Assembly (NCBI GenBank): GCA_964488175.1
Contig: CAZATZ010000001.1
Location: 1-31,072, forward strand
DNA from: an uncultured Spirochaetales bacterium
GTDB taxonomy: Bacteria; Spirochaetota; Spirochaetia; SP-2023; CAYRNA01
Length of the DNA stretch: 31,072 bases
Reading direction: 5' to 3'
Position 1 is the stretch's first letter; every line of letters starts with the position of its first letter. A program made the translations under genes and the position numbers. Below, piece after piece: positions 2,271 through 7,309 of this stretch. The notes beneath the pieces were generated by a model. That model worked only from the letters and a program-made list of their open reading frames with translations, had not been told where the DNA came from and made no database searches.

Positions 2271-3020
2271 TTAAAGTTGATCAACATCGTAAGAGTCTAA
2301 AATTTTTGACCCGAAAAGTCGTTTCAGATCAACCCGACCCGTCACAATCAATTCGTAGTATTTACCCAACTGGAATCGTTTGGGTATCTTAATAAGAAAT
2401 TCCTTTCGTTCAAAAGGTTTCACTTTCTCATCATACTGGACTTCAACGTAATATTTAAGTGCTTGAACTCCCCCATCCGTAAAAAAATAAAAGAGAAGAC
2501 TGGCCGTCGCAGAAGAGGCTTCATAGAAGCTATCGTTAAGAAAAGAGCTTCGATAGGTATTCATATCGAGTTGCGCCCCCTTCACCTTCACCAACTGTTC
2601 CACTTTCCATTTTGGTGTTTGAGAGAGAGCGCGAATCGTATACCTAGCATAATCTACCTGATAGTAGCTATATGGGGTATCTTCGGGGACTCTAGAGACG
2701 AGAAAAAAAGGCAAAGAGTTCTTAGGAAGGACAATATCCGCTAAAGGAAAATCTTCACTAAAGAGTAAAAACTCTGGATCATAGGGATTCCCACCATTCT
2801 CTTCCGTTACATCTGCGGGAGGAGAGTAGAAGTAAATCCGAAGAACGATATCGGCGATAGCGACGTCTCCGTATGGGTTTCTTAAGTATCCAGCAAACGC
2901 CTGTGTCTCTTCATTACTCTCAACGGGTGAAACAAAGGCAACGTTTCCAGAGAGAGAAGGGAGTGAGAGAACTAAAAGAATTAAAAACAGTGAGGTTTTT
3001 CTTAAAATAAGAAATCGCAT
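2271..3020 (-). CDS. Secreted hypothetical protein, probably two tandem FxLYD-like (Ig-fold) domains
   Basis: Signal peptide MRFLILRKTSLFLILLVLSLPSLSG; two similar segments GYLRN...IVLRIYFYS...LPKNSLPF and SFLND...SLLFYFFTD...VKPFERKEF. Start set at ATG 3020 (AGAGGAG 6 nt upstream) rather than 3053. Domain call is by pattern only. Confidence 0.6.
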   Translation of the reverse strand: MRFLILRKTSLFLILLVLSLPSLSGNVAFVSPVESNEETQAFAGYLRNPYGDVAIADIVLRIYFYSPPADVTEENGGNPYDPEFLLFSEDFPLADIVLPKNSLPFFLVSRVPEDTPYSYYQVDYARYTIRALSQTPKWKVEQLVKVKGAQLDMNTYRSSFLNDSFYEASSATASLLFYFFTDGGVQALKYYVEVQYDEKVKPFERKEFLIKIPKRFQLGKYYELIVTGRVDLKRLFGSKILDSYDVDQL

Positions 3021-3091
3021 CTCCAACTCCTCTCTCGAAAGATCTATTTGCATCAGAGAGTGACACCGTATACAGAAACATTCTCTCTCTG

Positions 3092-3180
3092 GGGTACCTC
3101 TAAAAAGTTGATTTCAGAAAATAACGAAGATATTTTTTGGCAAGTCAAGGAACTGAAAAAAAGGTTTTTTAGAGGTACCC
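3092..3180. mobile_element. 89-bp MITE-like element with perfect 15-bp terminal inverted repeats
   Basis: GGGTACCTCTAAAAA (3092-3106) and TTTTTAGAGGTACCC (3166-3180); the interior is duplicated at 1-55; no ORF and no clear target-site duplication. Confidence 0.6.
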
Positions 3181-3185
3181 TTTTA

Positions 3186-3210
3186 TACAATACAATACAA
3201 TACAATACGA
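3186..3210. repeat. Pentanucleotide microsatellite (TACAA)4 TACGA
   Basis: Read directly at 3186-3210. Confidence 0.95.
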
Positions 3211-3901
3211 GAAATCACTCTTCCTTTCTAACCCTATCGATCATTTCTGCTCATAAAGGTATCAATTTTTTCGTAATCTCTCCCTGCGATGGGGAAAAGG
3301 GGAGATTTTTCTATCAAGACTCATCGCATTTTTTCAAATCACGCCATAAACGCCACAATGTATGTCAAAATATATATCAAAAATCGAGTGAGAAATAAAA
3401 AGAGGTTCTTTTCACGACTCCTCTTTTCTCTGCGAACTTTCTCTGAGTAGTTCAAACTTCTCGCCCTCTAGCTATCAAATCCTCACTCAACGTTTCGAAC
3501 TCCCTGTCAAAATTGAAACCTCTCTCACTTCTACTCAGATCTGTTTCCTGAGAAATTTTAGATAAAAGCTATCGATGACAAAGCCTCTCATCAAATAACA
3601 TCCCCTATATCTCAGAAATCGCAACATCTTAACGTAAATATCCACGTCAAAAAGAGGCGATTATCCTCCCTTTTTTTTGATAAGACAGGAAAATATACAA
3701 TTTTAATAAATTATCTCATAAATTCTTCCGTTCGCTCCAGTCATTTTCCCTATTTTAGCCACTTCTCAACACAAAAGAGAGCATTTCTGAGATCCACTCT
3801 TATCTCTCGTGCTGTTCTTTCGCATTTAAATCTTATTTTTATTTTCGATCTCAGGAAAGGACTACTTTTCGCTCAAATTCCTCTTCTTTTCTCAAATTAG
3901 A

Positions 3902-3919
3902 CTGGCATGACTTTTGCAT
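3902..3919 (+). promoter_or_regulatory. Sigma54 (RpoN) -24/-12 promoter
   Basis: CTGGCATGACTTTTGCAT versus consensus YTGGCACG-N4-TTGCW: one mismatch and exact GG/GC spacing; oriented toward the CDS at 4047. Confidence 0.7.
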
Positions 3920-3965
3920 TTTAAAACACGACACAAAAGTCAATTTAAAAGAGGAGGAGCAAGAT

Positions 3966-4025
3966 ATGGTGCAACTTCTTCTCTTTTTTAGAAGAAAAAA
4001 GGTAGAAGGCACACTGATACCTTGA
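3966..4025 (+). CDS. Putative 19-aa leader peptide (uORF) MVQLLLFFRRKKVEGTLIP
   Basis: GAGGAGGAG SD at 3951-3959, ATG 3966, TGA 4023-4025, ending 21 nt before the ATG at 4047. Confidence 0.45.
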   Translation: MVQLLLFFRRKKVEGTLIP

Positions 4026-4046
4026 AAAAAAATAAAGGAGACGATT

Positions 4047-5123
4047 ATGAAAAATGATTTTAGAGGGCTAAGAGAGGAAGTCTCTCTCTTGCATGAAAAG
4101 TACAAAAAAGATGAAACACAGTGGCCGATTCTAGAAAAAGCGATTTTCCGTTACTTGTACTTCTTTCCTGCCGCCGTTTTTCACGAAAAAGAGGAGGGAG
4201 CGGAGTTTGCCGAAGAGATATTAGACAAGGTTCATCACTGGGTCGAAATACATTCCGGCAAGGTCCCCTTTGAGCTTTATCTCTATCAAGTGGTGCGTTG
4301 GCGTTACTATGATTATACGAGAAAAAAACGAAAAAAGATTTCGCACTCTCTTGAAGAAAATTGGCATGCGATAGAATTTAATGAAGAGTCTCTTTTTCTC
4401 TCAGACAATAGTGGCTCTCTCTACCTCGAAAAGAGATCTATTCTCGATAATAACGACTGCGTCGCACTCTACTTTAAAAATCCAACAAAGAGACAGAGAG
4501 GGGGAGAGCCAATTGCTATCGAGCCAAACCACCCCATCGAAAGTATAACCGAAAAGTTGCTAGAATACCTGCTGACCTACTCGAAGCTCAACTTAAAATT
4601 GGCGAAAACACGGCTTTTCTGCTTTCTGCTCGATACATTTTCACCACTAGACAATCTATCCCAAGAGTTCATCTCGAGAGAGCTTGATCAGAAGAGAGAG
4701 GCCGTAAAACGAATTACATCCAACATATCAAAAGAGATGGAACGACGAAAGGGGATTTATGACTATTACTGCATCAGGAAGAATCGTCTCGACACTCTTT
4801 TAAGAAAAGAACACCGAGAAGCACCACCCAATAGCGAGAAAATTGAGATGCTCAACAAACGACTGACTCATCTAAACAAAAAAATAGAGAACTGTCACCT
4901 TACGGTCTCTCAAAGCTTTTTAGCACGAGAAATAGGAATTCCTAAAGGGACTCTCAACGCACATCTTAAATTTACTCAAAATTTCTTTTCAAAGTTTATC
5001 TTCTCCGAACACCGAAGCTTGCCTGAGATTGAAAGAAGAAAACAAAAAAATGCTACGCCAGAACTTAAGCGGAAATATTTTCCAGAAAAAAAATTCATCC
5101 AGCGATTCTCTGAGCATTTTTAG
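4047..5123 (+). CDS. Atypical sigma70/ECF-like factor (sigma2-like region plus sigma4-like HTHs)
   Basis: AAGGAG SD at 4035-4040. aa ~51-95 AEFAEEILDK...PFELYLYQVVRWRYYDYTRK resembles ECF region 2 (F.tWL..I.rN...D.lR). aa 288-307 SQSFLAREIGIPKGTLNAHL resembles the region 4.2 HTH. The CDS is secure; the function is inferred. Confidence 0.62.
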   Translation: MKNDFRGLREEVSLLHEKYKKDETQWPILEKAIFRYLYFFPAAVFHEKEEGAEFAEEILDKVHHWVEIHSGKVPFELYLYQVVRWRYYDYTRKKRKKISHSLEENWHAIEFNEESLFLSDNSGSLYLEKRSILDNNDCVALYFKNPTKRQRGGEPIAIEPNHPIESITEKLLEYLLTYSKLNLKLAKTRLFCFLLDTFSPLDNLSQEFISRELDQKREAVKRITSNISKEMERRKGIYDYYCIRKNRLDTLLRKEHREAPPNSEKIEMLNKRLTHLNKKIENCHLTVSQSFLAREIGIPKGTLNAHLKFTQNFFSKFIFSEHRSLPEIERRKQKNATPELKRKYFPEKKFIQRFSEHF

Positions 5124-5179: not shown

Positions 5180-5207
5180 CTCTAAGTGCTAAATATTTAG
5201 GAGACCT

Positions 5208-6212
5208 CTAAAAAGCAACCCCGAAGTCTAATCCTGGTTTGACAGAAACTGATATCTCCTTGGAATTAAAAATAGGATTCTGAGTCATAATCAATTTTTT
5301 AGGGTTAACGATCGCATTGTAAGGAGTCGCAGAAACGCCGATACCAATATAGGGTCGAATAAGAATTCCTTGTTTTAGAATAAAGGTATACCCCGCCTCG
5401 AGGGCTCCTCCAAATCCTAATTTACCTATATACTCAGACCCACGTTCTTGGACACTCGGTCCTTGAGACGTAGTTCGGTAAGGGGTTACATTTCCAGGGA
5501 TCGTCAGACCAAAGCTCAATCCGACAAAATAGCCACCTAGCCCATTAACTCCCTTACTAAAAACATACGCTAATCCGATATCAACCAGATAATATTCAAT
5601 ACCACGTTTAAAGCTATTAAAAATGAGCCCTGGCCTTAGAGATAACTGTATCGGCCCAAGCATACGGTCATAACCAATCTGAAAAGCAAACCGACTAATA
5701 GAGTCTGGAGCTTGATCATCAAAGCCTTCAGGAGAGATATTCATGGAAGTAAAGAGCGAAGAAAGATCGAAAAAGAAGGCGTTCTTTGACTGTCCCAACG
5801 TAACAAGATTTACATATTCGATATCACGCCCAAGGAATGTATCGTAAATAGTAATGGCTGCCTTATCATCAGCTTTAGCAGCATCTTTCTTTTTCTTGTC
5901 TTCTTCAGCTTTTTTCTTTGCCGCCGCTGCTTTAGCTTTAGCAGCAGCTTGTTGCTTCGCTCTTTGTTGCTTCGCTCTTTGTTGCCTAGCCCTCTGTTGT
6001 TGGTTCCCTCCTTTGGCATTTCCTGCTTTGGCATTTCCTGCTTTGGCATTTCCTGGCTTGGCATTTCCTCCCGCACGTCCACCACCCTGCGCAGGCTTTC
6101 CTCCAGCAGGTGCTCCCTGTGCTGATAATGTTAAGTTCCCAAAAGGAAAAAGGAGAAGCAGAGAAAGAAAGGCCAAGTATCTCACAGGATACAAGCTGAG
6201 TATATTTTTCAT
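5208..6212 (-). CDS. Outer-membrane beta-barrel protein (8-stranded OmpA/OmpW- or DUF3575-like) with repeat-rich, low-complexity N-terminal extension
   Basis: Signal peptide MKNILSLY...NLTLSA; G/A/P/K/Q-rich tract; alternating amphipathic strands (FAFQIGYDR, GYFVGLSFG, GGALEAGYTF, IRPYIGIG); terminal GLDFGVAF with C-terminal Phe. Start moved to ATG 6212 (AAGGAG upstream). Confidence 0.75.
   Translation of the reverse strand: MKNILSLYPVRYLAFLSLLLLFPFGNLTLSAQGAPAGGKPAQGGGRAGGNAKPGNAKAGNAKAGNAKGGNQQQRARQQRAKQQRAKQQAAAKAKAAAAKKKAEEDKKKKDAAKADDKAAITIYDTFLGRDIEYVNLVTLGQSKNAFFFDLSSLFTSMNISPEGFDDQAPDSISRFAFQIGYDRMLGPIQLSLRPGLIFNSFKRGIEYYLVDIGLAYVFSKGVNGLGGYFVGLSFGLTIPGNVTPYRTTSQGPSVQERGSEYIGKLGFGGALEAGYTFILKQGILIRPYIGIGVSATPYNAIVNPKKLIMTQNPIFNSKEISVSVKPGLDFGVAF
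5949..5993 (-). repeat. In-frame 15-bp tandem repeat encoding QQRAK-type units
   Basis: TTGTTGCTTCGCTCT x2 (5949-5978) plus a degenerate third copy. Confidence 0.9.
6012..6071 (-). repeat. In-frame 15-bp tandem repeat encoding GNAKA-type units
   Basis: Core TTGGCATTTCCT at 6013, 6028, 6043 and 6058 (period 15). Confidence 0.92.
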
Positions 6213-6552
6213 TTTAAAACATCTCCTTCGAGCAACAATACGCTCTTGAAATATTCTCTTTAAATTTTCACAATAATTTTTTAACCGTCGAAACCCCATT
6301 TTGAAGTCAGACAACCACTTAGTAGAGCAAATAACAATCCTCGAGATAAGGAGAGCGTTATTTATAGAAGTTCATTAATAATCGGTAATCAAATACAATT
6401 ATCGGTACGAGAAGAAGCAGACTAGAGAAAGAAAAATTCTTTCGCTAAAAGAACCGTCTCGTAAAAGGGTTGCTAAGAACACCCCCCTCCAGAGCTTCTT
6501 CGTACTCACAGGCGAATCTAAGTTTTCACCTGTTTATCGAAGTCGAAATAAT

Positions 6553-6578
6553 ACATATTCACTCGACATATTCACTCG
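6553..6578. repeat. Perfect 13-bp tandem duplication
   Basis: ACATATTCACTCG at 6553-6565 and 6566-6578. Confidence 0.9.
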
Positions 6579-6776
6579 TTATTCGAATGAAGTCACCACA
6601 CTAGTATTGTAGAAAAAATATCTTTAAAACCAACCTAACTAGCTAAAAAGACCTTCGTCCCACACTTTTATTGCCTAAACAAAAAGACTTACCAACCAGT
6701 GTTCTACTCATTCTACCATTTTTTAACTTTTTTGGGAAGGAGGTACTCTACCGTGAGAGAGACAAAACGAAAAATA

Positions 6777-6792
6777 TGCAATATTTGCACCA
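6777..6792 (-). promoter_or_regulatory. Possible second sigma54 -24/-12 element facing the beta-barrel gene
   Basis: Minus strand TGGTGCAAATATTGCA has correct GG/GC spacing and TTGCA, but TGGTGC replaces TGGCAC; about 565 bp upstream of ATG 6212. Confidence 0.35.
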
Positions 6793-7230
6793 TCTAAAAA
6801 AAATATTTCTTATGAGAGATATAATGAAGAATGACAATGCACAAAAGAAATCAAGTGACGCAATACCATGAAAAAAATAAAGAGAGAGATGAGAAAATTC
6901 GCAGTACACAGGTGAAAGGGTAAAGAAATCCCGCTATAACTTAAGAATTTAGAGGTGTGAAGACAACTTTCGTCTTCTGCATTGCCTATTTGAACAACGA
7001 GCAAAACCAGAGAGTAAAGCTTCAAGCTCTCACTATATCAAAGATATATATGGGAACGACGTATATCGGCGATACATATGAGAAAAGAATTTTATCGGAA
7101 ATTAAAAAAACGAAAAGTTCACATTGAAAAAAAAGAAATTTCTTAAATTCGCACCTTGTGGAAAATTTTCCAAAGAAAAAAACGACACAGACAACAAAAA
7201 GATTGAATCAAACTCATCAATATTAGCTCA

Positions 7231-7288
7231 AAAAAATCCCTTGAAGGTCATTCTCAGAGTGTTGCCATTTCTAAAATTTCAACACTCT
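7231..7288 (-). terminator. Probable terminator of the ribosomal protein/alpha operon
   Basis: 9-bp inverted repeat AGAGTGTTG/CAACACTCT (7256-7264, 7280-7288) about 20 nt after the rplQ stop, followed by a short hairpin and a T7 run on the minus strand. Confidence 0.55.
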
Positions 7289-7309
7289 CACAAGATTGAT
7301 AAAAAATCT

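Follow-up and report, generated by a model that had tools for sequence, protein, structure and literature searches.

The stretch of DNA analysed here (‘the window’: 31,072 nucleotides of contig CAZATZ010000001.1, from an uncultured Spirochaetales bacterium) carries, between a divergent gene on one side and a convergent gene on the other, a gene for a 358-aa protein (P0001) with weak similarity to sigma-70-family factors, preceded on the same strand by a sigma-54-type ‘−24/−12’ box. An original prediction, made from the letters of the sequence, had proposed that the two form a two-tier cascade, in which sigma-54 (RpoN) drives an atypical sigma factor resembling those of the sigma70 and extracytoplasmic function (ECF) types. 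The coordinates of the principal features are given in Table 1.

The box and its conservation

As a sequence, the −24/−12 box is genuine and well placed, and its use as a promoter is predicted. Its core, TGGCATGACTTTTGCA at 3903–3918, departs from TGGCAC-N5-TTGCW by one mismatch and holds GG and GC exactly 10 nt apart, so the single mismatch and exact spacing claimed for it were confirmed. When both strands of the window were scanned for TGGCACN5TTGCW with ≤1 mismatch, this site was the single match. Against the extended consensus YTGGCACGRNNNTTGCW it fits 13/14 defined positions, GG and GC included, the runner-up in the window reaching a score of 11 and lying within coding DNA. Measured distances also agreed with those first estimated: 128 nt (about 130 expected) separate the end of the box from the ATG of the gene, and 849 nt of gene-free DNA (about 850 expected), counted from the start of the divergent minus-strand gene at 3053 and containing only open reading frames (ORFs) of 116 and 53 aa, lie 5′ of the box within an intergenic region of 993 nt. 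A Pfam search with the 116-aa ORF gave no match, neither the intergenic DNA nor the window as a whole yielded anything in Rfam or tRNA scans, and no sigma-70-like promoter was detected between 3860 and 4046. Taken alone, the box match is not significant, since shuffled windows contained on average 0.30 matches of the same kind and 27% of them contained at least one; evidence that it exceeds chance comes from comparison between genomes.

Table 1. Coordinates of the features at the locus, in window positions.
Feature	Position	Strand	Remarks
TCTCAGRAA copy 1	3545–3553	−	Distal inverted pair, with 3610–3618
TCTCAGRAA copy 2	3610–3618	+	Distal inverted pair
TCTCAGRAA copy 3	3784–3792	−	Proximal inverted pair; ~−141 from predicted start; candidate activator site (upstream activating sequence, UAS)
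TCTCAGRAA copy 4	3849–3857	+	Proximal inverted pair; ~−76 from predicted start
−24/−12 box CTGGCATGACTTTTGCAT	3902–3919	+	GG 3904–3905, GC 3916–3917; predicted transcription start near 3929
Upstream ORF, 19 codons, MVQLLLFFRRKKVEGTLIP	3967–4026	+	Strong ribosome-binding site AGGAGGAG; inside predicted leader
Sigma-70/ECF-like gene, 358 aa (P0001)	4047–5123	+	AAGGAG ribosome-binding site
Perfect 16-bp hairpin GAACGCCTCTCTCTAT / ATAGAGAGAGGCGTTC, 6-nt loop	5142–5179		Between convergent genes 4047–5123 and 5208–6314

Detectable relatives of the window protein numbered two among ~15 billion proteins, both of 291 aa and both from uncultured metagenome-assembled genomes (MAGs): P0002, at locus L161 (phmmer E 1.7e-10, ~24% identity), and P0003, at locus L163 (E 2e-4, ~30% identity). 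The full phmmer scan covered 1.84 billion representatives; a third match, P0004, was rejected as a repeat artefact. Searched by word index, 5.8 billion clusters yielded the window protein itself only, a profile search gave nothing beyond the phmmer matches, a scan of GTDB genomes with P0001 and two scans of Joint Genome Institute (JGI) metagenomes found no relative, and a scan of GTDB genomes with P0002 found its own contig only. The family, with three known sequences, is tiny and fast-evolving. P0002 originates from an uncultured Spirochaetales MAG whose RpoA is 67% identical to that of the window and in which the gene, as in the window, is convergent on rplQ–rpoA; it is a positional orthologue, although the gene evolves very fast, and the shared position beside rplQ–rpoA shows that the gene is real and vertically inherited. 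P0003 is encoded on a contig of 4.3 kb that belongs to a different MAG, of 60% GC. In none of 80 spirochaete rpoA–rplQ loci was rplQ followed by a family member, the few convergent genes at that place being unrelated.

A copy of the box was recovered in one of these relatives. In the 320 nt upstream of the P0003 gene, CCGGCATGATTCTTGCAC (L163 257–274; assembly GCA_964422595.1) is identical to the window box at 14/18 positions, with the blocks GGCATGA and TTGCA retained at equal spacing and GG and GC intact, in flanking DNA that cannot be aligned. A match of at least 14/18 anywhere in this region had a probability of 0.002 in 20,000 dinucleotide shuffles and of 0.0016 when drawn from a 2.67 Mb spirochaete background, rising to ~0.004 when both tested upstream regions are counted. 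The box was therefore kept across a large gap in GC content (60% in the L163 genome, 44% in the window) and at only ~30% protein identity. It lies 46 nt upstream of the annotated ATG of P0003 and 35 nt upstream of an in-frame GTG. Around this start (L163 297–321), the annotated ATG stands 18 nt from AAGGAG and the GTG, at 309, only 6 nt from it; the GTG is on this spacing the likelier start, and would add 4 residues.

The product and its similarity to sigma factors

All database similarities of the family appear to be to sigma-70/ECF factors, a sigma2-like segment preceding a sigma4-like one. TIGR02937, the general sigma-70 family model, matched P0002 over aa 26–287, spanning model positions 4–163 of 165 (E 1.2e-7, 31.5 bits), and P0001 more weakly (E 2.9e-4, 20.5 bits), E-values that are significant although both scores fall under the curated cut-off of 42.9 bits; P0003 was not matched. 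Pfam Sigma70_r4_2, whose cut-off is 25.7 bits, likewise scored only 19.8 bits (E 6e-4) on P0002, and did not match P0001. The remaining weak NCBIfam matches were nearly all sigma factors, the weak PDB matches of P0002 were ECF sigma4 domains in 7/7 cases, and the weak PDB matches of the family profile included an ECF sigma2 domain (profile 49–103) followed, in the correct order, by sigma4 (274–304), the sigma2 match, SigH, having an E of 1.2–1.4. When small ECF profiles were compared by hhalign, sigma4 was aligned at E 7e-4 to 1.4e-3 (probability 18–26%) and sigma2 at E 0.025 (probability 2%). When a crude ECF hidden Markov model (HMM) was run over ~6000 ORFs, only true ECFs ranked above P0002 and the window protein, and weak matches in PHROGs, the best one included, were to phage sigma factors. 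A homologue search from an ECF seed, intended to yield a deep ECF profile, returned near-identical enterobacterial RpoE only, with no gain.

In P0001, the sigma2-like block occupies approximately aa 25–100 (motifs AE... and F..YL..V.RWRY...R), followed by a variable, poorly predicted segment (~100–165), a conserved helical region (~165–282), a sigma4.2-like helix-turn-helix (~285–320, motif GIPKGTLNAHL) and a basic tail. The spacer between the sigma2-like and sigma4-like modules, which includes the conserved helical region, is thus ~180 aa in P0001 and ~150 aa in P0002 and P0003, unlike the ECF architecture, in which sigma2 and sigma4 are connected by a short linker and no further domain is present. 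The sigma2-like and sigma4-like motifs of the original prediction are real but weak: the window protein has no Pfam match and stays below the cut-off of TIGR02937. Overall, the family is probably a remote branch of the sigma-70 family, in which a sigma2-like module and a sigma4.2-like helix-turn-helix are held 150–180 aa apart.

Proposed regulation and competing explanations

The cascade that we favour, in which this remote sigma-70-family protein would be made from a sigma-54 promoter at 3902–3919 opened by an enhancer-binding protein, has in our estimate about an even chance of being correct in full. RNA polymerase carrying sigma-54 would bind the box and wait as a closed complex, an ATP-dependent enhancer-binding protein would open that complex, and transcription would begin at the predicted start. 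Such a scheme would entail an rpoN gene and an activator gene in the genome, use of the box, and binding of the product to core RNA polymerase. The activator may act from the TCTCAGRAA repeats, which form two inverted pairs, at ~−76/−141 and ~−319/−384, each pair being spaced by 65 nt and the two lying 239 nt apart, with no other similarity in the DNA between paired sites. Five matches to TCTCAGRAA were found in the window, four of them inside 3545–3857, compared with 1.68 expected in the whole window, a statistic that is post hoc, because the motif was derived from repeats of the same region, and the sites are therefore treated as candidate activator sites only. Enhancer sites are usually located 100–150 bp from the promoter (PMC3037356), which suits copy 3 at ~−141, and the proximal pair lies within the ~70–150 bp expected of upstream activator sites. 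A weaker copy of the repeat was seen at 3712–3723. The two relatives possess repeats of their own, TGTCAA three times in exact 10-bp phase directly upstream of the box in L163 (192–217, ~−92 to −67) and GAAATTAC three times, one of them inverted, right before the start codon in L161 (9902–9976), so that each orthologue has its own upstream repeat set; the TGTCAA copies of L163 are likewise candidate activator sites at a canonical distance.

Further control may be added at translation by the leader, which holds a small ORF and in whose predicted fold both ribosome-binding sites are paired. Beside the three family genes there is neither a conserved anti-sigma-like partner nor an rseA-like anti-sigma gene, so activity would most likely be set by the amount of the sigma-like protein that is synthesised, in keeping with transcriptionally controlled ECFs such as ECF32/HrpL (PMC7826278, PMC5263251). 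The first candidate targets would be the flanking envelope genes, 2271–3053 and 5208–6314.

Several results weigh against the cascade, and some of them would be accommodated by other explanations. Searches for RpoN-box and GAFTGA motifs revealed no rpoN or enhancer-binding protein gene, either in the window or at the other loci retrieved, a negative that is uninformative because these loci are not whole genomes; besides this, the repeats were defined post hoc, as stated above. A check set beforehand, that the box should be kept upstream of orthologues, gave a divided answer: in L163 it is kept, whereas the 320 nt upstream of the positional orthologue in L161 (assembly GCA_964425555.1) contain no GG-N10-GC at all, and with three members in the family conservation of the box rests on a single comparison. 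L163 also has a second candidate promoter 5′ of its box, the sigma-70-like TTGAGA-18-TATATT at 107–136 (10/12 positions), making dual promoters possible there. The L161 result and the sigma-70-like promoter of L163, together with the 27% of shuffled windows that hold a match of equal quality, favour a reading in which the box resembles a sigma-54 site by chance in either genome, ordinary sigma-70 promoters serving the gene. We nevertheless regard that explanation as quite unlikely, given the probability of ~0.002 for the 14/18 match in L163, the fact that the matching positions are exactly those critical for sigma-54, and the lack of any sigma-70-like site over the 190 nt that precede the window gene. 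A further alternative treats the conserved 18-mer not as a sigma-54 site but as the operator of another DNA-binding protein, or else as an autoregulatory promoter read by the sigma-like protein. The −35 and −10 elements of ECF promoters are separated by 16–17 nt, whereas GGCATGA and TTGCA stand 3–4 nt apart, which fits the −24/−12 geometry; moreover, the 18-mer is not palindromic and matches the sigma-54 consensus at 13/14 positions. Even though ECF genes are often autoregulated (PMC7826278), and the separate short repeats in each of the three upstream regions indicate that classical regulators clearly act there, this explanation seems very improbable.

The identity of the product is the other point at which the cascade might fail. 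All sigma matches of the family lie below curated cut-offs; the window protein has no Pfam match, with no Sigma70_r2, r3 or r4 at threshold, and Sigma70_r2 (PF04542) matched no member of the family in Pfam searches even at E up to 10; and the hhalign probabilities given above are low. Two AlphaFold models were poor (predicted local distance difference test scores, pLDDT, of 49 and 63), the only part predicted with confidence being a long helical hairpin, antiparallel, and the helix-turn-helix after it (the hairpin in the P0002 model), and Foldseek searches of PDB with these models gave coiled-coil and helical-bundle noise and no sigma fold, although this output was not counted for or against a sigma fold. 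Such results, and the fact that sigma2 is the weaker of the two signals (hhalign E 0.025), would suit a real sigma-54 promoter whose product is a helix-turn-helix regulator, or another RNA-polymerase-associated protein, with a coiled-coil arm and a superficial likeness to sigma2 and sigma4. This we consider unlikely, however, as TIGR02937 covers on P0002 the full model from sigma2 to sigma4 (E 1.2e-7), the weak PDB profile matches cover both ECF segments in the correct order, and the crude ECF profile places the family first after the true ECFs among ~6000 ORFs.

The two-tier RpoN cascade of the original prediction is therefore left partly supported: the box, its one conserved copy and the sigma-like character of the family speak for it, and the L161 region without a box and the failure to reach any curated threshold speak against it. 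The suggestion that the protein acts in place of RpoS is not supported; the protein is not RpoS-like. In Borrelia burgdorferi, a −24/−12 promoter and an NtrC-type activator (Rrp2–RpoN) drive RpoS (PMC3037356). The present locus resembles that system in that, in a spirochaete, a sigma-54-type promoter precedes the gene for another sigma factor or sigma-like protein, but the window protein has neither region 3 nor a Pfam sigma match and differs in size and architecture; furthermore, Borrelia Rrp2 works without an enhancer, whereas the window has repeats at enhancer-like distances. The closest functional analogue is found in Pseudomonas syringae and Erwinia, where HrpR/HrpS and sigma-54 transcribe the ECF factor HrpL (ECF32), which has no anti-sigma partner and no positive autoregulation (PMC5263251, PMC3105312, PMC7826278). 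This closer precedent makes the cascade idea less novel than was first implied. HrpL itself is a canonical ECF of ~180 aa that passes family models and is encoded in a type III secretion cluster beside hrpRS; the family proteins, by contrast, have 291–358 aa with a long helical spacer, and the window gene stands beside the ribosomal-protein/rpoA operon with no activator gene nearby.

Canonical ECFs (group 4, E. coli RpoE) share with the window family a sigma2-like block and a sigma4.2 helix-turn-helix in equal order, and in E. coli a leader ORF (rseD) precedes rpoE, like the upstream ORF of the window. However, only a short variable linker separates sigma2 from sigma4 in canonical ECFs (PMC7826278), ~20–30 aa compared with 150–180 aa in the window family, which moreover falls below all curated cut-offs and has no rseA-like anti-sigma gene. 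The window protein is a member of neither the Borrelia nor the HrpL system, being neither RpoS-like nor a canonical ECF32 factor and having no activator gene adjacent: the logic of the cascade is already known, and what is new is the gene family, a sigma-like family hitherto unrecognised. A broader proposal, that the family founds a new, spirochaete-restricted class of sigma-70-family factors, built from sigma2, a long antiparallel helical arm and sigma4, lacking an anti-sigma partner, and made only when sigma-54 and an enhancer-binding protein allow it, by way of a structured leader with a small ORF, is offered tentatively and is rather doubtful.

Were the cascade correct, it would provide a second, independent spirochaete case of sigma-54 controlling another sigma factor, and a sigma-like family missed by present domain libraries. 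The family would also allow a comparison of co-occurrence (box with rpoN, box absent) and offer a compact system in which to ask how RNA polymerase accommodates a long helical insert placed between sigma2 and sigma4. Because the organisms are uncultured and the logic of the cascade is known, the immediate impact is modest.

Leader, neighbouring genes and minor features

The predicted leader is 118 nt in length. Folding of 3929–4070 gave −29.8 kcal/mol (z −3.68 compared with shuffles), both ribosome-binding sites being paired. Neither the 19-codon ORF nor the leader was conserved in the upstream regions of L161 or L163, so that the upstream ORF and the fold are treated as only a lead.

Part of the hairpin beyond the gene was listed as terminator-like on the minus strand, and on the plus strand it has no U-run at its 3′ side; it is probably a two-way terminator serving the two convergent genes. 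The convergent gene, 5208–6314 on the minus strand, probably starts at a Met near 6212. Its product has a signal peptide, a low-complexity stretch rich in Lys, Ala, Gly and Gln and a C-terminal part whose last residue is Phe, and so looks like an outer-membrane protein. It had no family match, and the gene is missing from the syntenic position in L161. A weak sigma-54-like site, ATGGTGCAAATATTGCA, matching 10/14 positions, was seen on the minus strand at 6777–6793, ~550 nt from the start of this gene, and the ~1 kb between the gene and rplQ (6315–7309) contains no notable ORF and no Rfam or tRNA match.

Other neighbours encode an HlyD-like protein, ApbE and a secreted 260-aa protein, and the rest of the window is filled by a minus-strand block of rpoB–rpoC, tuf, ribosomal-protein genes, secY and rpoA–rplQ. 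The EF-Tu of the window is 68–72%, and its RpoA 53–61%, identical to those of Spirochaetota MAGs, which supports the spirochaete-like genome of the original prediction and indicates a spirochaete to which no sequenced genome is closely related, in all likelihood a deep-branching, uncultured one. A placement in Bacteroidota (RpoA 37–38%) was rejected as an artefact of the peptide patterns chosen, the alignments of EF-Tu and RpoA giving Spirochaetota.

Within the long intergenic region, a perfect 15-nt inverted repeat, GGGTACCTCTAAAAA / TTTTTAGAGGTACCC, occupies 3092–3106 and 3166–3180 with a loop of 59 nt. Its core, ACCTCTAAAAAG, occurs in three copies in the window compared with 0.49 expected, the third (5204–5215) overlapping the stop codon of gene 5208–6314. 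A short (ATACA)n microsatellite lies nearby, at 3185–3209.

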